A stretch of DNA of 34,485 nucleotides from Parasteatoda tepidariorum (taxonomy: Eukaryota), in the NCBI RefSeq assembly GCF_043381705.1, contig NC_092205.1, forward strand, positions 57,580,995-57,615,479. Reading direction: 5' to 3'. Made by a program: the position numbers and the translations under genes. Below the pieces are notes generated by a model. The model had not been told where the DNA came from. It saw only the letters and a list, made by a program, of their open reading frames with translations, and searched no databases. Below are positions 965 through 34,485 of the stretch, piece after piece (the first letter of the stretch is position 1; every line of letters begins with the position of its first letter).

Positions 965-3900
965 TGCCCTAGAAAGCCATGGATTTACGAAATATAAATT
1001 TTTTTTGTGTTCGTACGATAGTTAACATAAAACTGACAGATTTTACACTGTACTGATATTTCGTTTAAGAAATGTTCATTAAAGAAGAAAACCTAAAAAA
1101 AACTTTTTATTCAATTTGGGACCCCCTCTGATGAGGGGCCCGGGACAACTGTCCCGTATGCCTCTGCCTTTGTCAGGCTCTACCTACGCAGACTGATCCA
1201 AGTGGTCACCCACCAGCACACTGACCGCAGCCAGTGATGCCTGACTTCGGTGATCTGCTGGGAACCGTGTCTTAACGATCAGTCCATGCTCGTACCTCGA
1301 AGCGTGAACAGTATTTTATTTGAAATATTTGAAGTTTCCATTATTTACAGATGCCAAAATTTTACATTTGCGGAACACTACTTCTCTACCAAGCTCTCTA
1401 GCGTGGAGCTAGCAGATTCGAATCCTCCCGTATTATTTTTTGCATCTTTGTAATGTGATTCTTTAGTTTGTGCTACCTGTTTTTCATTTTGATATTGGAT
1501 TATAAGCCGTCTTTTTAATAAGAACACAATTTTAAGAATGCATACGTAACAATAAATAAAAGGAACAACGCTACAATGAATTTTTGCGCACACGCTAATG
1601 CGTTGGAAAGTTGTCACGCAAAGCTCAAAAATATTTAACCAATCAGCTTTCTGATTACGTCAGTCAATATCACGTATCGAAAGGAGGCGTGTCGTATTTG
1701 AAGATATCAAAATATTGCGTGTCTCGTGTTGCTGTTGGGGTTGCAACCGGCATATGAACGAATGCAATTTAATTCATTTTCATTAAGGTATATAATTCAG
1801 TAACTACTATTACTACACACTTAATTCGTAAAGCGTATTAGACTGCATGAGTTACGCTGCTGTTACTAAAGGTACATTATTTTTTTCTAATTTAAACAGC
1901 TTGTTTTGTTGAATGTTTGGCTTTGACATTTTGTGTTAAATAGAATATTTACTTTAAAATGTAGATTAAAGAAGTTCGAATTGAAAATAGAAGTAGTGGT
2001 AGTTCAATTCTATGTTAAGATTGGTACTATTAGGCTCAGAAGAGCACTTGAATAAGAGGAGCTTTTTGAAAATGAACTATTTTCAATTTCACAAAACTAC
2101 TTAACTTCTGATCTCATTATTTACTCACTTGGTTTGCAGTGGGTGTCGACATTGGGGACTATCAATATATATCACTCTCAAATTTTAGAAACCTCTAAAA
2201 AGCCCCCCTTTCAATATTTCAGACAAATAGGAACATTTTAAGCTATTTAGTAAGCAAAAGATTAAAAAACTTATAACTTGTTCAACATTAAGAAAAAAAT
2301 TCTTTTAGTGGAGAAATACTCATACTTTTCAATATTTTCTTTCCAAGCATTTTCGTTCTTATTTTTTACTTTAAGTAACCTCCGTATTTGTAGAGAAGTA
2401 CACTGCTGATTTTTTCCCTTGTTTCTCCCCATGCATAAATTCCTAATCAATGTGGCTGAATTAGGAATTTATGGACACATTTAGGAACACTTTATTCAAG
2501 AAGACTAACAATTCCTAAGGAAAGAGATTGAAGGTCAAGGGAAAGGTGTAACAGGTTTAACACCTTACCCTCGGAAAGAAACAATCTCTGTTTTCCCATG
2601 AAAACGAGGGTGCCACCTTCATTTTCCCTCCAGTGATATAATGACCTTCGATTCCGCTCCTAATCTTCTTTCTTCAGTTTAATATGAGTAAAGTGTATGA
2701 TTGCATGAATAGTTTTAACTTTTGTCCTCTTATTCCTAAATTGAAATAAATTTTCTAATTTTAGTCTTCATGAGTTCAATCAGATAGTAAATAAATGTTT
2801 TAAAATATGATTATTGATTTATTTTTTATTTATGGTATAATAGTACATGTTATGCAGTGATGAGATTCAAATTCTAATACACTTAAATAACTTTTTAACA
2901 TTTTTAAAAGAAATTGAATAACAGGCGAGAAATATTAGGAACTAAAATTAATAACTTTTTATGAATTTTAAGGTTTAAATACATTTCAAATTTAAATTTT
3001 CTAAAATATTTATTTTTTACTTTCAAGTATTCGTTCGAAATGACTGAATCTCATCACTACACGTCAATCGTAATAATCGTCAGTGAAGTCTTGTTTCTAA
3101 AGTAGCAAGATAAATCACTAACTTGAATAGCATTTATTAAAGTTCATTTAAATTTAATAGAATGAAACATTCAGCATAAGTGTCTCATCTTAAAATAAAA
3201 TCTGTTTAATTTATAACAACAAAAATACTAAAATCATATTTAATGTTTCAGCTAATTTTATGTGAAATTCACCAAACATTTTCCTGAAATGAAAAGTAAG
3301 TTTTAAATATAATGCACACCAGATTAAATATAATGCACACCAGTATGCCAGATTTAATTTAGAGAAAATATAATTACTTTTAACTAAATAATTATTTTTT
3401 TCATATAATTTATGAACTTTTTTTATATATAAATATTAATAAACTTTTATTTTGAATAGTTGATCATTTTTACTTCAAAAATATTTTTTGGAAAAATAAT
3501 GTGTTCGGAAACAAATTTTGACTGATTTAATATTTCAAGTTTTGAATTTTTTATTTTTGTTAATTAATTTTTTAAATTGCATTTACTTAACTTTCTCAAA
3601 GCAAGATGTCTGACTTAGAGAAAGTCTGTTTTCGTTACCCATGTATATAATATATGTATCAATGTAATTTATTTGCAAACATTTTATTTTTTTCATATAA
3701 ATGAATATAATATAAAAGAGTTAATTTTTAAAAAAATATAATTACTATTTACTAAATAATTAATCAATTAAACTAACTAAATAATTACTCAATCTAAACT
3801 TATTAAATAATTAATCTGAGTGATGGAGTTTGCAGAAAAAAAGGTTTTTTCCCATGTATATAAAATTGTTCATGCAGGACTTTTGTTTCTTAAAATCAGA

Positions 3901-5058
3901 TTCTTTGAAGAATGTGCCAAATATTTATGTTTCAAAATCATCGATAATAACAGAAAAGTAGAAATAATATTTACCAAATAATTACATCTCGTATCAACTA
4001 TTTAACGAATAATAACTAAATCACTAATTTTTATAAGTTCCATAGTTTGCTCATTAGCGTTCATCGCCTAGAAAACTGCTTGTGCAATTCTTTTAATACT
4101 GCTTTGTTCGCTTATTTCATTTTTCCAGTCTAGAGTGACCAATGAAACTGAAGAAGAAAAAAAATCAAGATATTATAGTTATTGTAGTTGATTGAAATTT
4201 GTCATTCATTGCATGCTAGTTTGAAGCTTGTAAATTAAAAATCTTTGAATTTGGCAGCTAATGTTCATTAATGTATGTTAATTATGTTTTAGTATTTTTA
4301 TAATTTATTATACGAACGATAAGGGAAAAAATTTTTTGTTAGAATATGGGAAAAAAATAGTTAAAAATTCAAGAATTTATTTCAACATGAATGATTGATA
4401 AGAAAAAAATAAGTGTTAAACATACATTTCTTGCAGTAATGAGAGAGCACCATAGAATTTTCCTTAGATGATTTTTATAGCTATAATGTAAATTTTAAAT
4501 AAAGATAATTGATTTTTTTAAAATAAATAATTTTGAAAATGATATTTCTTAACTTTTATTTAAAGCATGCCATTGTGAATAAGGAATTTTTTTCATTGCT
4601 TAATGAATTGTTTATTTTGTAAGCAAATTCCAAAATATCTTATTAAAATGCACTACATGTTTTTTATTTTGTGTTAAGATTTATTTTGGTATTTAATATA
4701 TCTTGCTGATTAAGGAAAGTAATTATTAACATTTGTTGTATGATTTTGACTAAAATCTACTTTTCATTAATTTTCTTTTATTAAAATTTTAATTGCATAA
4801 TAAAAAAATTTCAGTTAAAACTCAGATTTACTTTTAAGAGTTAAAAAAAAATAATTCATCATTTTGCAGATGGAATAAATATTTTTTTTTTTAAAATTTA
4901 TATTGGCTGGATGTAGTATGCTCCGGGGATTATTATATCTTTCTAAAAAATATTTACAGTAATTTTTATTACTGTTTATGTTCTCATTATACCAGCAAGA
5001 CAATCTTTATCTAGCCTTGAATGACATGCTTTTTCATTGATTTTCAATACATAACAAA

Positions 5059-5064
5059 TTTATT
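5059..5064 (-). promoter_or_regulatory. Candidate AATAAA polyadenylation signal for the PIH1-domain gene. It reads TTTATT on the plus strand, about 70 nt downstream of the stop codon.
   Basis: It is the first AATAAA hexamer on the minus strand after the stop codon at 5135..5137. No transcript evidence is available. Confidence 0.3.
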
Positions 5065-5134
5065 AAATATTCATCTTGAACATTTATGTAAAAAAAAAGT
5101 AGATATAATCTAGAATAAGCATAAAATATGTCTT

Positions 5135-7378
5135 TTAAGGTGAAGAAGCAGGTGTTGGAGTATTTACAGCTGTAGAGGCAGGCTGTGGGTATGGGGATTG
5201 TTGAAAATTAGTTTGAAGATTATCACTTTCTGTAGTAGGTTGAGAATGTGGAGTTTCAGGATTAGTTATTTGTTGTTCTACAGGTGTTGGAGGAAGATTC
5301 TGAGAATCTTCTCTTTGTGGTGTAGTGATATGGAGAATTGCAGCTTGAAGGTTGGCTACTTGAAAATTGGCTGCTTCAAGAAGAGCCTTTTGAAGATCAG
5401 AAATTTCATTTAGAGCTGCTTGAAGATCAGCTATTTGCATAGAGTTGTTTTGAACTGAATCTTTTTCTTGGTTTGTATTTTGAAGAGGAGGTTTCTGGGG
5501 TTCAGTTTCAATATCTTGTTTTTGCAATGCACATTGTGAGGGGTCAGCCTGCTGTATTGAGTTAGCTTTGAGGTTTTCAACTTGGGAAAGAGTAGCTTGC
5601 AGCCGAGCCAACAGGGAAGGAGCTTCTTGTAAATGAACTTGTCGAGAAAGTACAGTTTGAAGCTGTGCCAAATGAGATGATGCCATCTGAAGTTGATTCA
5701 TTTGAGCTGGGGATGCTTGGTGGTGAGCTATTTGTGGAGGAATATTTTGACGATGCTCCATTCGAGGAGGAGTCGATTGGTGATGGTTCATTTGGGTGGA
5801 ATCCATTTGAGGATACCCCATGTGATGGTGACTGGCTTGCTGTCGATTGACTGGAGGGGCATTGCCTTGATGTCGTTCCATCATCTGCACATTTGGTGGA
5901 TAACGATTCATGTAATGAGGATTAACACGATTATGGGGCATCTGTGAGGGCAATGGTTGAAGATGATTGGGTCGAGAAGTCATTTGAGGGTGATTCATTT
6001 GTGATGGCATATGTTGTGAATTCTGAGAAGGAGGCATCTGGTAATGAACTGCATGATGACGAGGCATCTGAGCTATATTTTCTTGGTGTTGGCTCATATG
6101 TGATGTATTAGACTGAAAATGACTTCTCTGTGACGTTGGTGGGAAATGAGGAGCCATTGCATGTCCTTGATTCATGTGGGGAGCATTTGTTTGATGATTA
6201 TCTATATTAGGATAGTTAGGTTTATAATGAGGTGGATATTGTTGACGAGGTGACATTTGAGGTGGAGGGGCTGTTTGATGGTGAGAAATTTGTGCTGCAA
6301 CAATCTGCGAATTAGTAGTTTCAGTAGCATTTTGCTCATGATGAGGTCTTAATTGTTGCATAGGTGTCTGACTTCGTGGAGCTTCATGAGGTGAAATAAT
6401 TCTTGGTGGATCTGGTCTTCTACGATATTGTCCAAGTGTAAAAATTGATGAAGGATTGGCACGAGGTAAATATATTGTTATTTTACCTTCATGATAATGT
6501 ATCCTACAATCCATAACTGATATTGCATTAGGAAGATAAAAATAAAATTGGTGATTTGTTTTATTTTCTCTAATAAATAGCTTCTTTCGAGAAGCAAATA
6601 CTTTAACATCTCTAGGATCTAAAAAGGAAAAATATGGCAGAACTACTTGCAACATGAAACCTTTAAATTCTCCTTCAGCAGGAAATTGTCGGATCTCGTA
6701 TTCAATTGAAGGATTTTTAATGTCAAATTCTGGCTTGCGTTCTGTATGAAATTTCCTTATTGTTGTATTTATGGTGAAAGGATCAGAGAAGTATGGCTCT
6801 TTATTATTTCCTTCTTCTGATTTGGACAGAACACCTAATCGTTTGTATACATTTCTCAAAGATTCTGGCATAGTCCCATGATAAAACTTCTTTAACAATT
6901 CAAATTCTTTTTCTAATTTAATGTTATACCTATCATAAATAGCTTTACATGCTGTTTGATATAGGTAATTAAGTCTTTGATCACGGTGACTGTGAGAAAG
7001 TATAGAGTCCATAAATTCTGTTTGAATTATTGTATCATAGCATATGCAAATTTTACCATTTTCATCTCTATCTACACGTTCATCATCTAAATATAAATTA
7101 AATCTTAGAATCGATTCATCTCCACGACTAGTATGAATTTTTGAATTATAAACATTGCAATTTGGTAATTCGAGAGAGTGACAAATATTAATGTAAGCTG
7201 TTTTGTTTTGTTGCGTTTTTCCTTGGAAGCAAAATCCTGGAACAGTAACTAGTGATGGACATTGACTGTGTATTATATTTTTATTTTCTGGGCAAGTAAA
7301 GTCATAGGATTGATCGATTAAGCTATAATCGTAAAGCACTTCATAAAATTTTCCATCTGAACTTCTATTTTCTGCCAT
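5135..7378 (-). CDS. PIH1-domain protein (Kintoun/PIH1D family). It has an N-terminal PIH1 domain and a CS-like beta-sandwich, followed by a ~400-aa Q/H/P/M-rich low-complexity tail that ends in a short coiled-coil-like segment. It appears to be a single coding exon.
   Basis: The ORF track gives a 747-aa uninterrupted ORF. The hallmark N-terminal PIH1 motif is present as VTVPGFCFQGKTQQNKTAYINICHS, where human PIH1D1 has QPQPGFCIKTNSSEGKVFINICHS. A further block, ICICYDTIIQTEFMDS...RYNIKLEKEF, matches PIH1D1's CTAYDVAVNSDFY...KYNLQLNPEW. A CS-like region follows (EYEIRQFPAEGEFKGFMLQVVLP...KITIYLPR). The family is identified by recall, not by a search. Confidence 0.8.
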   Translation of the reverse strand: MAENRSSDGKFYEVLYDYSLIDQSYDFTCPENKNIIHSQCPSLVTVPGFCFQGKTQQNKTAYINICHSLELPNCNVYNSKIHTSRGDESILRFNLYLDDERVDRDENGKICICYDTIIQTEFMDSILSHSHRDQRLNYLYQTACKAIYDRYNIKLEKEFELLKKFYHGTMPESLRNVYKRLGVLSKSEEGNNKEPYFSDPFTINTTIRKFHTERKPEFDIKNPSIEYEIRQFPAEGEFKGFMLQVVLPYFSFLDPRDVKVFASRKKLFIRENKTNHQFYFYLPNAISVMDCRIHYHEGKITIYLPRANPSSIFTLGQYRRRPDPPRIISPHEAPRSQTPMQQLRPHHEQNATETTNSQIVAAQISHHQTAPPPQMSPRQQYPPHYKPNYPNIDNHQTNAPHMNQGHAMAPHFPPTSQRSHFQSNTSHMSQHQENIAQMPRHHAVHYQMPPSQNSQHMPSQMNHPQMTSRPNHLQPLPSQMPHNRVNPHYMNRYPPNVQMMERHQGNAPPVNRQQASHHHMGYPQMDSTQMNHHQSTPPRMEHRQNIPPQIAHHQASPAQMNQLQMASSHLAQLQTVLSRQVHLQEAPSLLARLQATLSQVENLKANSIQQADPSQCALQKQDIETEPQKPPLQNTNQEKDSVQNNSMQIADLQAALNEISDLQKALLEAANFQVANLQAAILHITTPQREDSQNLPPTPVEQQITNPETPHSQPTTESDNLQTNFQQSPYPQPASTAVNTPTPASSP

Positions 7379-9920
7379 ACTGGCAAAAAAATTCCTCCTG
7401 ACTTAACAAGATTTCTAGGCATACATATTTTTCTTTATAATTTTTAATGTAAGCTTGTTACCTTTTTAAAAATTATCATTCAACATTCAAACAGCTTAGA
7501 AAATAATTATATGTAACTTTTCTTAGCATAAAATACAAATAATGATCAATCAGTATTAGCTCTCTGATTACTTAGCAATAATTTTAAAAAAATGATTAAT
7601 TATAGTGTTATTAGTTTCTAGTTATATTTATTAGAAAAATAAAGCATCCGTAAATAGAGAATATTATGTGATCTCCTTATTTGCTAAATAATGAATAATA
7701 GAACCAAAACTAAACAATAGCAGACGTATGAGATACATCTCAAAAGGAAAATAAGTATCTGGCAATATAAATGAAGTGATGGTATGAGGCTTTTTACTAG
7801 CACGCAGTCATTTATAAAGTTTTTCGTTATAAAAATATTTATTTTTACATTTAATCGTGAAAGTGCATTACATTTTTGAAAAACTATGTCGCAAAAATTA
7901 TTAATTTAAATAGAATCGGGAAGGCTATCGCAGGAAAAAAATAAATTATAACTCTCTAATATTTTTATAACTCGTAACCGTTTCGTTTTTTGTTTCCAAC
8001 AAAAACAAAAGTAAACAAACCGGGTAGAATGTAATAGAGATGTTAGGTCTAGTAACAGATCAGTTAATATCGGCATTACCAACAAAAATATGAATTCCAT
8101 TTTTTTTTTTTAATTAAAGGGGGAAATTTTGCACAGGTTGTCAAAAAGACTGGAAAAAATACGAATTTTTTCTTGACCTTACGGGATTCTAAAACAACAC
8201 ATCAAAATTGTAACTAATTGTATAACACTGAAACTAACTCAAAATTTCAAGGGAATAAAAAACAGGTCATTTTTATCTTCAGTCATTAGAGTAAGTGGAC
8301 ATTCAATTTGGCATAAGATAACTCCAATCCTAATGACAATATTTTAAAATCAGAATGTTCTTTAATCTCTAGAAATGTGTAAAGTTTCAAAATATTTAAT
8401 TAGTAGAGTTATGACAGTGAGAAGCATACTCTGAGAAAATTTTCGGAAACAAAATTTAAGGGATATTATCATAACCACGGCAAGTTGGCGAAGAGTCGGC
8501 GGCAATTATAAAGATAACTTCATGAAACAAAGGAAAATATGATAAATCCTATATCCGGACGTTTGTTTCCGGGAAGGGTACACTTTCCGATCATTTTTAA
8601 TGTGAGAGTAAAGAGTTAAGTCAGACGAAAAATAAAAGTTATAATTGAAAATTTTTATTTTCTCTTTAAATCATTGACAAAAAGTAAACTGAAACATTTG
8701 TGCCAATGTGTTTATTCTCTATTAAGTTAATCCCTTAATAATTTTTAAATTCAGTTGGAGCAAAATGTGAAATCTTCTCTGTTTAATGAACAGGTGCAAA
8801 TCATGTTTTGTTTTGAAATTTTGTCTTCAGGTATTATCTTATATCTTGCTTGTTCCTTTGGACAGTTAAGTTTTCTTTGCTAATTAGTTCCTGTGGAGTT
8901 GGGTGTAATTGTAACTGTGATGTAATTGTTTTCCTTTCTCGTATTCTTAATTATTCCCTTGAATTAATTTTTAATGGAGGAAAATAATTTATATTTTTCC
9001 TTATAAATTTGAAAAAGAATTAAAATAAAAAATAGTTGTAATGTTTTCTTTTTTCCAAATTTATTTTTGTTTAAATACATTTTTTAATGATTATTCCTAT
9101 TTAAATTAAAATTTTTTAATTTTTATTAATTAATATTGTTATTTATTTATTTTTGCTGTTGGGGGAAATTTTATGTATTTTTTTGGCCTAAAATTGTTTT
9201 TATTTGGGGTCCATTATTTAAATTTTTTTTTCCTGAATACAAAATGAATGATTATATTTTAATTTGATGTTATTTTAATTAATTTTACTGTAATTATTGA
9301 ATAAAAAATAATTATGTATTTTGCATATTTGGTAGTGTTTGATCTTAGTTTTGGCTTTATTAGGGACCATATATAGCCTAGACAAATTATTTTTTTTTCG
9401 AATACAAGAAAAATAATCATACTTTTCTTTAATCTTCATTAATAATATTTTTTACAGTTATTTAATCAAAAATATTTACAATTATTGTGAATTTGGTTGA
9501 ATTCGTTCTTTGTTTTGACATACCTTTTTTGATTGGGGATCTATTACCTAGAAAATATTTATGAATGCAAGTTAAATTAAATTTATTATACTTTTTGAAA
9601 GAGAAACTTTTTTTTTAATTGGCTGATTTTGTAATTCTTTGATGTGACTTTATTTTGTTTAGTGACTTGTAAAGTATTTCCTGCATATAGATATATACTA
9701 ACAATCATACTTTTATATGACCTCTCTGAAGTTAATATAACAAAAACATTTTAGTCTTTCAATTTAATTTTACTTTTTGCTTTATCAAGTCTAGTCAATT
9801 TACTGTCTTAATGTTGCTCTTAGAAATTAAGGTTGTAACTTTTCACTTTAATTTAAAAGTAATGTTTTTAAAACAGTTGTTATAATTCTATTTCTGATGT
9901 TATCTATTTCCATAGGAATA

Positions 9921-23616: not shown

Positions 23617-23860
23617 GCATGAAGCTGAAAGACGAGAACAAGAAGCCAAAGGTCGCCTTGAACGTCAGAGAATATCTGATGAAGTAGAAGCTGAAAAAAC
23701 TCGAAAGAATTTGTTAGAGCTGCAAGTTGCCAGAATGGCCATTGAAAACTGTGGTCAATCTAAAGCTGAAGCTCTGAGTCGTACTGAAGCTCAACGTATT
23801 GAAGCTGAAGCTGCCATTGATCAAGCCAAGGCTAAAGCAGAAGCTAAACGCATTGAAGCT
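23617..23860 (+). CDS. MVP: Major vault protein exon 12 ((R)[81 protein letters not shown]). This is the C-terminal coiled-coil cap-helix region.
   Basis: Acceptor ttttgcag|G, donor GCT|gtatgt. Aligns to human [81 protein letters not shown]. Confidence 0.85.
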
Positions 23861-25871
23861 GTATGTATTAAAGTATTCTTTTTCTTAAATTCATTGCTTT
23901 GAAGCAGATATTCAAACTGGTTTGTCTATAAAGGCCAAATTTAAGTTTGTTAGATCAAACTGGAAAGTTCTAAATGCCAGATAAACGGCAATTAGCGGAG
24001 GGGGAAGTGAAGTTGCAAAATATTTAAAAGTTTTATCAAAATTCAATATTTTTTTTTTGGACATGGAATATTAATGCTTGCAACTTCAATTACTATAAGT
24101 AGTAATTTCCAGAGGTTTAAAATGACAGCTAAATTTAATAATTGCAAATGAAAATAATGAAGCTGTATTTTAAAAGTTAACAGGGATCGTATTTTCCCTA
24201 AAATTTTTCTAAAGGTTTTTCACAACCTCTAAAATACTAAAATTTTGCAGTTCCTAAAAAATGGAAATTATGTGAGAAGTAATGATTAAATCTCTCAAAT
24301 TAACGTTCTACTCTAATCAAATAACTAAATCTGGGTTGCACCGATCTAACAGCTAAGTGCTTCAAACACATAAGAATTTACTTGTTGAGAGAGCTATCAG
24401 CATTGTGCTTCATTTCTTAAGCTTTCATTGCTCGTAATCATTTTAAAACATTTTCATAGCGTTTTCAAGGTAAATTACTTAAAATACACCTACTTCCTGT
24501 TCAGTAAAATAAATAAGTTGATCAGCATGTTATATGCAATTCATACAGGCCAGTATTGTTGCTGCCACGAAAGGCAGATATAAGGTATAACGAAATTGAT
24601 AATGGTAAGAATTGGAAACAATTCTATTTAAATTGGTATGCTAGTTGAAATTTTTTAGTTAACTTAACAAAGAACAATAGCGAAAATATTTTCGTGAATG
24701 TTTTTTTCTACAATTATTTAAAACTCGGAATTATTTAAAATTTTACTTACTTTTTTCTGATTAGTTTTTCAAGCACTTAGAATTTTTCGACATGGAAAAA
24801 AAATTGAACAATAGTACAAAAAGTGTGCTTGCAATTTCCAGAATTGTTCGTTATTGAAATTTTTTGAAAGAGTATATTGACAGTGTTAGGTATTAATGGA
24901 AGCTATAAATATTTTATGTTAGTACCCATAAGAAACTATCTTAATGCAGGTTTATGGATATTTGATGAAACAGATTCTTTAAGATATTATCTAAAATGTG
25001 AAAAATTAATTGCATTAATATAAACCATTTTAACTTTTCAAACTGAGAATCCTGAAAGGGGTTTTTGATAAGTAAAGCTATGCTCAGTGTTAGTCACAAT
25101 GAAATGAAAATACTATTTTATGTCTCATATTGGTGAATGATACTCAAAATTATAAAGGGGTATTAAATATACCTTTCACATTAGCACTACTTTTGGCAGT
25201 GAAAGATTCTCATAATTCATACCTGGAATTTAGTAGAATAGTAAAATAAGTTATACTAAGTAATAAATTTAAAAACTAATGAATAAAAAAATGAAAAATT
25301 TTGATTTACAGATTCGTGAAAGTAGCCAAAAAACTAGACATTGGCCTAACAAAATAATGAACAGAAAGATTGAGAAAAGCTGCAGTGTCTCAAAATATTG
25401 TAGAAATGATGGTCTCATATACTTTTAATATCTAAAAGAACTGATTAGCTACAAAATTCGGAAAAATGTCGAGACATGGATTCCAGAGTCTCGAACTTAA
25501 TGTCAATTCCAAAGATATTAAGTACTAATTAAGTACTAATATTATCACTACCAAAGTAGAAATCTGAGATGGTAGAACTACAAAATATAGAATCAGAAAT
25601 GACTGTCTTCAAAACTGTGAAAGAAATATTGAAAAAGTGACTGAAAATTAAATATTGCTTCTAATTTTTAACTATAATTGAAATTTAATAGTAAACAATA
25701 TTTTTTGTTAAAATAATTAGGTAAAAATAAAGTTTCGAAGTAGTCATCAAATTAATGTTTTTTTCTTAAAATTTCTCTAACATCTAATAGTCTACCACGA
25801 AGTTATAAGGCTATGTAGACCATTTGTTTTATGTATTTAAAAAAATTACTATTGCCATTACCATTTGTTTT

Positions 25872-26427
25872 AAAAAAATTACTCGTAATTTGTGAATATG
25901 AAATAAACGATAAGTCATTCTTTCAACCAGGGTCCTGCTTTTATGAATTTGTGCAAATAGGGTCCGGTTATAGCAACAAAAAAAATTCAAGGAGTTTTTA
26001 AATTGTAAAGAGATAGGAGATTATGCTCAACACTGTAAAATTATAATTAAAAAAATTAAATTTTAAAAAATAAACAACAATTGCTGCTTCTAAATTAGAG
26101 ATGCAACATACAAATATTTGGTATTTAGCCTATACTGCTGAACGCAGAATATTAATTTCGGACGAATAATGGAAGAATCGTCTGCCGAAGACAAAACTTA
26201 ATTCGTTTACATCCATCTTTCTTGTTTTCTGCCCTGGAAAGGGTTTATTCGATTAACAAAATAATAATGAAGATAAACAAATTTGTGAAGGGTCCGATTA
26301 AAAGAAAAATTATTTTGTGAAGGGTCCGTTTTTAAGTTAAAATATTTTGTGAAGGGTCCGTTTTTATGAAAAGATATTTTGTGAAGGGTCCGTTAACGGA
26401 CCCAAATTTCTTCTAAACAGACCCCTG
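25872..26427 (+). mobile_element. Related copy A of the same CAGGGG-TIR element family. It is 5'-truncated with no 5' TIR. Before its 3' terminus it carries an expanded 3' subterminal array of four ~32-bp TTTTGTGAAGGGTCCG(A/T)TTTT repeats, followed by the palindrome GGGTCCGTTAACGGACCC.
   Basis: Core homology to copy B (attctttcaaccagggtcc...gggtttattcgattaaca) and an identical 3' terminus ...ggacccaaatttcttctaaacagacccctg. Confidence 0.55.
26281..26400 (+). repeat. Tandem subterminal repeat array, 4 copies of a ~32-bp unit (a/t)TTTGTGAAGGGTCCG(a/t)TT(T)..., inside copy A.
   Basis: Unit starts at about 26281, 26313, 26345 and 26377. Confidence 0.7.
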
Positions 26428-26741
26428 CCTAATAACTTAAATTTTAATAAAATTTTTACTTCATAGCTACTTTTACAAATTATGTAGAATTTAGATAAAT
26501 ATATGTCTTTATATTATAAGGTAGTTTAATGTAAGTAAATAGGTACTATCAGTGTATGTTGATTATTCCACTCATGAAATGCCAAAATTAAAGTCACGAC
26601 CTGCTTATATGAAATCCACTATCGTTAACCCCGATTTTCATTTCATGGACCCCCAATTTTTTTTTCGCTTGACATGGACCCCTTGCAGGTTGTCATCGAC
26701 CCCTGAGGATCGATATAGACCACTTTGGGAATCAATATAAT

Positions 26742-27177
26742 CAGGGGTCTGTCCAGACATTTTGTGAAAGGTCCGTTTTTCGTGAAATTGTGAAAAAATT
26801 ACTCACATTCTTTCAACCAGGGTCCGCTTTTATGAATTTGTGCAAATGGGGTCCGATTGCAAAAAAAATTTTTTCAAGGAGTTTTTAAATTGTTAAGACA
26901 TGCAAGATTATGCTCAACACTGTAAAATTATAATTTAAAAAATTAAATTTTAAAAAATAAACAGCAATTGCAGCTACTAAATTAACGATGCGACGTATAA
27001 ATATTTGGTATTTAGCCTATACTGCTGAATGCAGAATATTCATTTCGGACGAATAAAGGTCTGCCGAAGACAAAATTTAGTTCGTTTGCATCGGTCTTTC
27101 TTTCGCCCCTCCCTTCTAGGAAGGGTTTATTCGATTAACAAATTAACGGACCCAAATTTCTTCTAAACAGACCCCTG
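26742..27177 (+). mobile_element. Nonautonomous TIR element (copy B, 436 bp) with terminal inverted repeats CAGGGGTCTGT...ACAGACCCCTG and one subterminal TTTTGTGAAAGGTCCGTTTTT repeat. CAGGG termini are hAT-like. Flanks are degenerate, aatataat on the 5' side and caattaat on the 3' side.
   Basis: The 5' end caggggtctgtccagac and the 3' end ctaaacagacccctg are reverse complements. The internal core is about 85% identical to 25872..26427. Confidence 0.6.
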
Positions 27178-27384
27178 CAATTAATATTTTTTTTTTTTTT
27201 AAAAAATTTATGATTAGAGATTGTCTTTTAGCACGCCTTTAATTATTTCTTTTTAACTACTTTAAAAACTGTTGAGGATCAAATTCAGTTATTACATAAT
27301 ATTACACAATTAGATAAATTTTTAAGGTGTTATGTAGGAGCTTCTTCAAAATTCAAACTGTCCTTTCCTTTTTTTCAGGTAGAA

Positions 27385-27860
27385 CTTTAGATATCAAACA
27401 GTCTCTCTTATTTTAATACAATCAACAGAATAGATAGAAAGAAATGCACCTTCCAAAGGAGATGATCAAATTAGAATTATACAATAATGCATGGGTACAA
27501 AATAGTGATTAAAAATTCATATAAAAACAGTTAAATTAAAGTTTCACACTATTGCTAAATATCAAACATTCTCTTCCACTGTTCCACTGTTAAAGTTCAG
27601 AAATACCAACAAAATTTTAAACACTGTTGTACTACCAACAGAACAGATAGGAAAAATATGTACAACCCCCCAAGGAGATTATAAAATTAAAATTATACAA
27701 TAAAGGGTGGACAGCACAGAATAGTGATTAAAAAAATTATATTAAAGCAGTGAAAGCTACATATTATTGCTACATATCAAACATTCTCTTATTTTAATGA
27801 TCCGGTGTTGAAGTTACAGAAATACTATCAATAAAATTTTGCTACACCATTCTACAATCA
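27385..27860. repeat. Tandem repeat, about 2.5 copies of a 170-215-bp unit (...atatcaaacattctctt...caacagaatagatag...ggagat.atcaaattagaattatacaataa...atagtgattaaaaa...).
   Basis: The anchor atcaaaca(t/g)tctct recurs at about 27392, 27561 and 27776 with similar flanking sequence. Confidence 0.6.
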
Positions 27861-27874
27861 ACGGAAGGATCCTC

Positions 27875-27940
27875 TTTTATGAAAAGATATTTTGTGAAGG
27901 GTCCGTTAACGGACCCAAATTTCTTATAAACAGACCCCTG
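27875..27940 (+). mobile_element. Solo 3'-terminal fragment of the CAGGGG-TIR family (subterminal repeat, then GGGTCCGTTAACGGACCC, then ...ACAGACCCCTG).
   Basis: tttatgaaaagatattttgtgaagggtccgttaacggacccaaatttcttataaacagacccctg is near-identical to 26362..26427. Confidence 0.55.
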
Positions 27941-28561
27941 TATAGATACGAATAATCTTCCCATTTTGCCATTAAATATGGCTTACTCAATATGTTAGAC
28001 AAATTTATTAATATGCTATCTAGAGTATGTGTTTTCAATTTTACAAGTCAATATTAATATAATGAACTGCAGTGTAAGGTATTTTTATCTTAACTAAATC
28101 GCTCCCAAATTTTTTTTGGAGAATATCCTTCAAATGCATCCTAATATATTAAAAAAAAAAGTAAATACTGCCAATAAAAAGTGCTATAATTTTAATGACT
28201 AGAAACCAAGGTTTTTAATTTAATCTCAGATATAATTAATATAATTTTACATGGGAAAATGCAAAATTTGAATGAAATCTGTTGAATAGTTCCTGAGAAA
28301 TGGAATTTTAAATATCTAACTTTTATTTTTTGAAGTCTGTGTTCTTTACACCCTAGGCTGCTGTAGTACTGGGTTGTCACTAAATAGGGAGAATAAGGAA
28401 AACCTGGAAAATAGATGGAATATAAAAATTATCTAAATTAACAGCATATTAAATTTTTCCTTATAAACTAGGAAGTGCAGGGAATTTTATTCTTTAACTT
28501 ATAGTGTTTGTATTCTTTAACTTATAGTGTTTAGTGAAGTGTTCAATAAACTTGCTTGTAA

Positions 28562-29337
28562 CAGGGCTCGAAAAACCACCCGTCCTCGGCGGTCAAAAAT
28601 TCCCCACGGACAAAAAATTTCTCTAATCCAGCGTCCGCGCGGACGGCCGTTTTCCCGTAAATGTTCGTGATACATTTTAAATTTTTTTTATCTTACAAGA
28701 GTCTACCGCCTCACTTCTAAAATGACCCTCTGATCTCGAAATACAGCAACACACTGTGCATGGTGGAATTGATGTTTTCTCTGTCAGGGAGTACTGCAGC
28801 GGTTGAAAGGGGCTTTTCAGCAATGAACTTACAAAAAAACACATTACTTACTGGTCTTAAACAAGAAGCGTTAAACGCATTTATGAACATCTACCTAAAT
28901 GGAAAACCTCTTTCAGATTTCTGTGCAGAAACCTCTGTAAAATATTGGCTTGATTGTGGAACTGGCAAACGTCATATTTGATTCATTTAAAAAACGCAGT
29001 ACCATCGGATAAATTGACATAATTGACAGATAACTTAACCTTTGTTATTTAAATTATTTCATCAAAGAAATAAATTATTTCATAATAGAAATACTAGGTT
29101 TTACTAATAGTACCCTAGTATTTCTTTTATTACTGTATAATGTAATCCTAGTATTTGTAATCGTAATAACTACTAACTAATTCATTGTGCAATTTATATA
29201 AATGTTTGTAATAAATAAGAGAAAATTATATTTTTATTTATTTAGAAGCGACGGGTTAATTTCAAAGGAGGATGGGTAAATTGTTGGACAAGCGGTCCTC
29301 GGGGACGGGTAAAATTTCTGAGTTTTTTCGAGCCCTG
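28562..29337 (+). mobile_element. Nonautonomous, internally deleted hAT-superfamily DNA transposon of 776 bp. It has a perfect 8-bp target-site duplication GCTTGTAA (28554..28561 and 29338..29345) and roughly 16-bp terminal inverted repeats CAGGGCTCGAAAAAAC.
   Basis: The 5' end reads cttgcttgtaa|CAGGGCTCGAAAAACCACCCGTCCTCGGCGGTC and the 3' end reads GCGGTCCTCGGGGACGGGT...TTTTTTCGAGCCCTG|gcttgtaata. The ends are reverse complements of each other. The CAGGG terminus and 8-bp TSD are hAT hallmarks. An internal ORF encodes a hATC dimerisation-domain remnant. Confidence 0.8.
28760..28981 (+). pseudogene. hAT transposase C-terminal dimerisation-domain (hATC) remnant, 73 codons. It is all that is left of the transposase after an internal deletion.
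   Basis: The ORF track protein ...LSGSTAAVERGFSAMNLQKNTLLTGLKQEALNAFMNI... carries the conserved hATC signature S-x-x-x-x-ER-x-FS followed by a hydrophobic R/K..L....L..L pattern. The BED and RNase-H-like domains are absent. Confidence 0.7.
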
Positions 29338-29377
29338 GCTTGTAATATACTAACATATTCATTCTTTAATTACAAAG

Positions 29378-29566
29378 GAAACAGAATTAGACCGTCTACA
29401 GAAAGCTAGAGAGGCTGAATTAGGCTATGTGAAACGTCAAAATGAATTGGAAGTTGAGAAAACAAAGCTACTTTCTGAAATTGAAATTAATAAATTTGAA
29501 AAGGTGATTACAAGTCTAGGAAGTGATACCATTCAAGCAGTTGCGTCAGCTGGTCAAGAATTTCAG
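29378..29566 (+). CDS. MVP: Major vault protein exon 13 (ETELDRLQKAREAELGYVKRQNELEVEKTKLLSEIEINKFEKVITSLGSDTIQAVASAGQEFQ).
   Basis: Acceptor attacaaag|GAA, donor CAG|gtttgt. Aligns gap-free to human [63 protein letters not shown]. Intron 12 (23861..29377) is 5.5 kb and full of transposable elements. Confidence 0.85.
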
Positions 29567-33828: not shown

Positions 33829-34485
33829 CAGTAGACGCCGCTTAATGTGATCACATCGGGACGAACATGATTTGATAACAATAACCGATTGATTACAATA
33901 AACAAAAAAAAAAGTTAAGCTAAAAAATGATTTTTTTTACATACGTATTAAAATAAAAAATATTTTAAATTAGGAGTTGTTGCTGTAAGACTCTGAAGTA
34001 TTTAATAGAAATTAATGTACACTAAAGAAAAAGTATTAGTATACTCACATATTTATTGATAAACTGCAGAAAACAATACAAAATACAAAAGGTTAATTAT
34101 TAACTGAAAAAGAAATCATCAATTGTCGATTGTTTAGCATTCTTTCGAAGCAATTCATTTACGAATCGCTCATAATCATAATGTTTATGAAAGTGTTCCG
34201 CGTCGGCTTTGTTTTGCACACCTAGCCGTAAGACTCGAAGTGCCTCCCTCATCTGAGCAGGCGTCGGAATTTTGTCCTCGATAGCACTTTCAGATTCATC
34301 ATCGGCATCAGAATCTTGTGACGAAGACACATCTGACACATATGGTTTCTGATGGTGATCTTTGACACATATGGCTTCGCAAATGTCCTCATCAGTTAAC
34401 GAAGTAGAAGTCTCAACCTTCTCGTCGATCTCCATCCATGCTTCAAAATCCTCAGCATTCATATCGGGCGGGGGATTGAAAACGT
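33829..34485 (-). mobile_element. pogo/Tigger-like (Tc1/mariner superfamily) DNA transposon, 3' portion. The element continues beyond the window end. Its terminus CAGTAGACGCCGC abuts TA within a (TA)n tract (TA at 33827..33828).
   Basis: A minus-strand ORF encodes the acidic C-terminal tail typical of pogo-like transposases. About 270 bp of non-coding sequence lies between the stop codon (34100..34102) and the CAGT... terminus next to TA, which fits a pogo TA target site and CAGT-type TIR. Confidence 0.55.
34100..34485 (-). CDS. pogo/Tigger-like DDE transposase, C-terminal 120+ aa. It is partial, and the ORF remains open to the window edge.
   Basis: The ORF track gives MNAEDFEAWMEIDEKVETSTSLTDEDICEAICVKDHH...SDADDESESAIEDK.... 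This acidic tail with the ...EDF..W...TSLTDE(E/D)I..A(I/V) motif is characteristic of the pogo family. The 23 nt upstream in the same frame (VFNPPPD) contain no stop. It is homologous to the decayed fragment at 16262..16400. Confidence 0.6.
   Translation of the reverse strand, partial: VFNPPPDMNAEDFEAWMEIDEKVETSTSLTDEDICEAICVKDHHQKPYVSDVSSSQDSDADDESESAIEDKIPTPAQMREALRVLRLGVQNKADAEHFHKHYDYERFVNELLRKNAKQSTIDDFFFS

Follow-up and report, generated by a model that had tools for sequence, protein, structure and literature searches.

We analysed a window of 34,485 nucleotides (by window we mean this whole stretch of DNA), which contains the major vault protein gene (MVP) on the forward strand. Its fourteen coding exons were mapped by tblastn from 9957 to 31956, exon 12 ending at 23859; the probe was a human MVP sequence and the alignments were judged by their own scores. 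The product has the vault Pfam domains and its best match is the MVP of Araneus ventricosus (79%), which points to an arachnid as the host. The initial annotation had placed a non-autonomous hAT element in intron 12 of this gene, and the exon map agrees with that location, since the element lies between coding exons 12 and 13 (Table 1).

Table 1. Features of the hAT element and of its surroundings in MVP (window coordinates)
Feature	Position	Strand	Remarks
Host intron, MVP coding intron 12	23860..29377	+	Donor GTATGT at 23860; acceptor AG 29376-29377
Left TSD copy	28554..28561	.	8 bp, GCTTGTAA; abuts the left TIR directly
Whole non-autonomous hAT element	28562..29337	+	776 bp; same orientation as MVP; sequence read, repeat finder
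5' TIR	28562..28575	+	CAGGGCTCGAAAAA; a metagenomic hAT family has the identical TIR
5' non-coding terminal region	28562..28678	+	Subterminal CCGTCC/GGAC motifs; palindrome TCCGCGCGGA at 28632-28645
C-terminal transposase remnant	28679..28981	+	Robust homology from 28736; in-frame TAA 28718-28720; VERGFS motif; native stop position
3' non-coding region	28982..29337	+	356 bp, AT-rich
3' TIR	29324..29337	-	TTTTTCGAGCCCTG on the forward strand; repeat finder
Right TSD copy	29338..29345	.	8 bp, GCTTGTAA
Putative branch point TACTAAC	29347..29353	+	24 nt upstream of AG; role suggested by the consensus
MVP coding exon 13	29378..29566	+	ETELDRLQKAREAELGYVKRQNELEVEK...

Intron 12 also holds a second repeat family (window 25975-27940), with three identical or nearly identical minus-strand termini CAGGGGTCTGTTTAGAAGAAATTTGGGTCCGTTAA at 26393-26427, 27143-27177 and 27906-27940. 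Two copies of around 250 bp (25975-26223 and 26862-27102) are 85-89% identical, there is a 32-bp tandem array at 26287-26395, and a possible element of 436 bp with the left end CAGGGGTCTGTCCA extends from 26742 to 27177. This looks like another CAGGG-type DNA-transposon or MITE family; no clean TSD was seen around it. Upstream of MVP and on the opposite strand there is a single-exon ORF of 747 aa (5135-7378, minus strand). A PIH1 domain (E 5e-12) is found at its N-terminus, and the long tail after it is of low complexity and Q/P/H-rich. At the window edge, an acidic ORF of 120 aa (MNAEDFEAWMEIDEK..., 34100-34462, minus strand) has no Pfam hit and is presumably similar to the C-terminal tail of transposases of the pogo/Tigger type.

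Regarding the boundaries of the element, the junctions read aataaactt GCTTGTAA / CAGGGCTCGAAAAACC ... GTTTTTTCGAGCCCTG / GCTTGTAA tatactaac. The sequence read and the repeat finder agree on the perfect direct repeats (TSD) that had been claimed to flank 776 bp, and only a length of 8 bp fits the flanks, lengths of 5, 6, 7 and 9 bp being incompatible with them. The arms of the inverted repeats (TIR) are complementary in 14 of 14 positions according to the repeat finder, and in 15 of 16 beyond that. The ends had been described correctly as inverted repeats, except that the left-end string had been given one A too many: it reads CAGGGCTCGAAAAACC and not ...AAAAAAC. The termini are CAGGG at both ends, which satisfies the hAT terminal consensus, 5'-YARNG. 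Before the insertion, the site in MVP intron 12 would have read ...AAACTTGCTTGTAATATACTAAC..., with a single GCTTGTAA. Around 25 bp upstream of the insertion site there is also a perfect 23-bp tandem duplication, TATTCTTTAACTTATAGTGTTTG, in two copies (28485-28530).

The non-coding parts of the element are recognizable at both sides. Around 70 nt of the 5' end can be aligned with the 5' ends of a family of metagenomic elements described below (the L023 type). The coding homology begins at 28679-28736, upstream of the ATG, which leaves a 5' non-coding end of around 117-175 bp instead of the 200 bp or so originally proposed; the other two parts said to have been retained, the hATC region and around 350 bp at the 3' side, are there. 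In the 3' region, a 21-bp tandem repeat occupies 29050-29093 and a hairpin 29082-29130, and GGAYGGGTAAA-like subterminal repeats occur three times, at 29250, at 29270 and at 29303. An AATAAA is found around 29211, in the former 3' UTR of the transposase gene.

The longest ATG ORF of the element (28760-28981) encodes 73 aa, MVELMFSLSGSTAAVERGFSAMNL..., in a reading frame that is open from 28721 over 87 codons, in a window with around 28% G+C. In the Pfam scan it matched only Dimer_Tnp_hAT, with E 0.18 and below the threshold (12-15 bits vs a cut-off of 21.4); an 86-aa extension of the ORF gave E 0.018 and 15.2 bits vs the gathering score of 21.4. A word-seeded search found one protein of 79 aa (P0001) 81% identical to the ORF and two others (P0002 and P0003) 55-57% identical, and an exhaustive profile search returned 2673 relatives at E<=1e-3. 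Where these relatives are full-length (670-830 aa), the matching part is close to their C-terminus, and the ORF aligns with the C-termini of full-length transposases with E 1e-10 to 1e-22. We scanned ten full-length proteins against Pfam: nine had zf-C17orf113, that is, all those with any Pfam hit, and at the position aligned with the ORF PF05699 was found in seven at E<=0.001, six of which reached the cut-off. Thus, the assignment of the ORF to hATC, which had been proposed together with a PF05699 check, stands by its strong homology to transposase C-termini, the ORF itself being sub-threshold. Against PDB sequences the ORF profile gave only noise (an esterase, E 0.23), and exact look-ups of this ORF and of the 747-aa ORF upstream of MVP returned no contig.

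When seven full-length transposases were compared with the window by tblastn, only 28736-28978 was matched, by their residues around 527-715, and no transposase homology was found in the window outside the remnant. The best reference is the 731-aa transposase of the contig L005, whose residues 630-723 align with 28679-28975 at 50% identity (E 7e-21), spanning the TAA at 28718. The remnant therefore comprises the last 80-100 codons or so and the native stop of a transposase of around 730 aa, which is around 11-14% of the coding sequence. It holds the conserved (S/A)ER.FS motif, which, from what is known of Hermes, we take to carry the third catalytic residue. The element lacks the zinc finger, as well as the motifs ADGSTD and DGA that the relatives have. 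With the zinc finger and both catalytic aspartates lost, the copy is non-autonomous; an autonomous hAT has a complete transposase with zinc finger and RNase-H-like DDE core, and this one does not.

Judged by the domains of its relatives, the transposase belongs to a clade in which a zf-C17orf113 finger is N-terminal and hATC is C-terminal, with members named 'ZNF862-like' at NCBI. One protein 54% identical to the ORF (P0124) is named 'zinc finger protein 862-like [Penaeus indicus]', and ZNF862 is listed among the hAT-derived genes (PMC3257199). Our literature search for C17orf113 combined with hAT found nothing.

We also looked for other copies of the element. Four metagenomic contigs (L001-L004), which are one locus in four samples, match the element with 88% identity in the ORF and with 76% in its final 140 bp or so. 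The homology over the last 135 bp or so ends precisely at ...TTTTCGGGCCCTG, i.e. at the GGCCCTG terminus. This copy retains more coding sequence, from around residue 597 of the L005 transposase, and the C-terminal ORF is also kept. A left TIR was looked for in these contigs and none was found, hence they do not provide a second TSD for the family of the element.

Furthermore, metagenome contigs were scanned with the pattern CAGGGCYCGAAAA-N(1-14)-ACCCRTCC, which returned 43 contigs; the terminus analysis excluded those above 50% G+C as probable chance matches. Around 30 low-GC contigs of the 43 belong to one family, whose 14-bp TIR is identical to that of the element and whose 5' subterminal region resembles its own. 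One of its members, L023 (2270-7027, 4758 bp), contains a decayed transposase of the same clade, 40-47% identical to that of L005 and 42% identical to the ORF of the element, and its orientation relative to the two ends is as in the window element. The matches L036/L044 and L038/L048 were discarded as probably due to chance, having neither transposase homology nor a partner TIR, and a candidate TIR in L049 (Penaeus indicus), CAGGGGCGTCAATT, was not used because there was no clean TSD. In prokaryotic genomes (596 Gb) the pattern used for the metagenome scan gave only 3 matches, in bacterial MAGs, which we took as chance background, and the more stringent, family-specific 3' terminus was not found in viral contigs or prokaryotic genomes.

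Two further families have readable ends. In L005, P0003 comes directly after an ORF of 610 aa, and both joined give the 731-aa protein with one stop, which has the zf-C17orf113, DUF4371/FAM200-ZBED5 RNase-like and hATC signatures. The L005 element is complete (3149-7605, 4457 bp), with a TIR of 16/16, CAGGCACCGAAGAATT, its boundaries having been set by comparison with a second copy, L061. L005 3149-7605 and L061 4144-7259 (ENA ERZ25072999) are 98% identical, and this is the closest full-length relative. The homology in L061 ends at the stop codon of the transposase, so that copy is 3'-truncated or interrupted, and a Harbinger-type DDE_Tnp_4 gene is near the element there. The other family (L053-L060; ENA ERZ25067889 and ERZ25073780) has eight loci and seven distinct insertions, given that L054 and L059 share their flanks, with an identical transposase of 768 aa (P0274, in a cluster of 101 member sequences) and perfect TIRs, CAGGGTGCGCCAAAA...TTTTGGCGCACCCTG. 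The element occupies around 2673-5819 per locus. This is apparently an active hAT5/hAT6-like family.

The TSD length is taken as a fixed signature of the transposase lineage, 8 bp in hAT, 5 bp in hAT5 and 6 bp in hAT6. The relatives, however, differ from the element in this respect. TSDs of 5 bp were read in L005 (AATTA), in L018, L021, L023 and L039 of the family with the identical TIR CAGGGCTCGAAAAA, and in four insertions of the L053-L060 family (L055, L056, L058 and L060). In the last family L053 and L054/L059 have 6 bp and L057 is ambiguous; a TSD length varying between 5 and 6 bp inside one family is itself unusual. The transposases of these three related families are 38-57% identical to the ORF of the element, and the subterminal motifs CCGTCC and GGACAAG are common to all four families, that of the window included. 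Since TSDs of 5 bp, rarely 6 bp, are the product of all three related families whose ends could be read, the 8-bp TSD is atypical for its neighbourhood. Hence the element had been called a textbook hAT with only partial justification: the 8-bp TSD, the CAGGG TIRs and the hATC remnant are as described, but those of the nearest relatives whose ends could be read have TSDs of 5 bp. According to the passages of PMC12730594 and PMC9004415 that cite Kapitonov & Jurka 2007, the hAT5 group consists of hAT transposons with 5-bp TSDs from invertebrates and fish. By its TSD the window element has the 8 bp of the hAT superfamily and not the 5 bp of hAT5.

These data allow several readings to be weighed. 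A trivial one would be that the repeats came together by chance in an AT-rich intron, or through an error of assembly, and such arrangements do arise at random: an 8-bp TSD with an 8-bp TIR was found in 99 of 200 random windows, and an 8-bp direct repeat with a perfect inverted repeat of at least 11 bp in 9 of 200 Markov-1 random windows. Nevertheless, the TIR here is a G+C-rich sequence of 14 nt that occurs nowhere else in the window at up to 2 mismatches (chance expectation 0.14), and the sole other match in the real window to a TSD with a TIR of at least 11 bp is a TATATA low-complexity run. In addition, the interior encodes the transposase C-terminus, with the L005 alignment given above, and independent copies end at the same base. 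The arrangement is non-random, and this trivial reading, whose probability we regard as practically nil, is already refuted. A more specific proposal is that the element belongs to the hAT5 group and that only five bases of the 8-bp repeat are the TSD, the other three agreeing by coincidence, for example by way of three extra flanking bases carried from the previous site. The 5-bp TSDs of L005, of the identical-TIR family and of L053-L060, all of them with the CCGTCC/GGACAAG motifs, speak for it. Against it, the 5 nt preceding the element are TGTAA and the 5 nt following it are GCTTG, so no 5- or 6-bp TSD abuts the TIRs, and an aberrant carry-over of 3 nt plus a 3-nt coincidence is required, for which our rough estimate is around 1e-3. 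We therefore consider this proposal very improbable. That the family of the element regularly makes 8-bp TSDs and is nested among 5-bp lineages is a tentative suggestion, with one complete insertion known, and we hold it as possible rather than probable.

It could also be asked whether the element or its ORF has been put to use, either as a separate hATC dimerisation peptide able to poison the transposase or through an effect on the splicing or polyadenylation of MVP. The ORF stays open over its 87 codons although the genome has 28% GC, the L001-L004 copy has kept this C-terminal ORF as well, and dN/dS against the L001 copy is 0.4. Such a value is to be expected if the divergence arose mostly while the master transposase genes were functional, ahead of each deletion; for this reason we rejected it as a sign of selection on the fragment. 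As to MVP, the element is in sense orientation, its right end precedes the exon-13 acceptor by 40 nt and TACTAAC by 10 nt, and there is the AATAAA of the old 3' UTR. However, the branch-point-like motif, the polypyrimidine stretch and the AG are all untouched by the insertion; moreover, only two copies are known and the short derivatives of the coral family do not retain the ORF. A use of this kind is thus hardly to be expected. The intact splice signals fit a tolerated insertion, and the element is most likely a neutral intronic passenger.

The element is very probably an internally deleted, non-autonomous hAT copy of the zf-C17orf113/hATC ('ZNF862-like') clade. In this respect the initial annotation is borne out by the exact TSD and TIR, the homology to the transposase C-terminus and the absence of the catalytic core. 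A transposase acting in trans would bind the CAGGG... termini and the subterminal CCGTCC/GGACAAG motifs, excise the element and integrate it at GCTTGTAA in MVP intron 12 with cuts staggered by 8 bp, and the repair of the staggered cuts would produce the 8-bp duplication. An internal deletion of around 2.7-4 kb would have taken away the zinc finger together with the RNase-H-like core and its two catalytic aspartates, leaving a copy dependent on transposase supplied in trans. There is no autonomous copy of the family in the window and none was found among the relatives searched, therefore the origin as a deletion derivative is read from relatives that are 42-57% identical. The 5' end of the element is like that of L023-type elements, and its ORF is collinear, in the same orientation, with the C-terminus of the transposase down to the stop, these relatives being of other families. 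Regarding the age, there are no mismatches in the 8 TSD pairs and the 14 TIR pairs, which together with an open frame of 87 codons in AT-rich DNA suggests a fairly young copy, with a divergence roughly estimated below 5% per site. Given its intact ends, it is plausible that the insertion is recent and could still be mobilised in trans.

Compared with known systems, the element resembles Ds of the Ac family in having both termini, an 8-bp TSD, a TIR that starts with CAGGG... (Ac: CAGGGATGAAA) and short subterminal repeats, as well as in the presumed internal deletion of the catalytic part of the transposase and the dependence on a transposase in trans for movement. Nevertheless, its clade is the animal zf-C17orf113/ZNF862-like one and not that of the plant Ac, its autonomous parent has not been seen, and it keeps only the extreme C-terminus. 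With hAT5 it shares the closest families, one of them with the identical 14-bp TIR, and the subterminal motifs, whereas its TSD is exactly 8 bp; hAT5 is compared here by its published description. The domesticated vertebrate genes of the ZNF862/C17orf113 type have the same PF25431 (zf-C17orf113), DUF4371/FAM200-ZBED5 RNase-like and hATC domains as the relatives of the ORF, but they are single-copy genes without TIRs, while the element is a remnant bounded by TIR and TSD that lacks the catalytic core. MITEs have by definition no coding capacity and a high copy number. As the hAT MITEs do (Mar of Drosophila, PMC3517528), the element represents a non-autonomous hAT derivative that is shorter than 800 bp and has TIRs and a TSD of 8 bp, but it keeps an open transposase remnant of 73-87 codons and is not a MITE in the strict sense.

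Non-autonomous hAT copies in introns are commonplace in animal genomes. This one is in all probability an ordinary hAT deletion derivative, whose sole point of interest is an 8-bp TSD among 5-bp relatives. Elements with the same termini differ here in the signature of TSD length, which is a small question for transposon specialists. If there is indeed an 8-bp family among 5-bp lineages, the two would lend themselves to a comparison aimed at the transposase residues that determine how far apart hAT enzymes cut the two strands of the target. The element itself matters little, and its value for annotation is that of a fairly young transposable element insertion beside an MVP splice acceptor.
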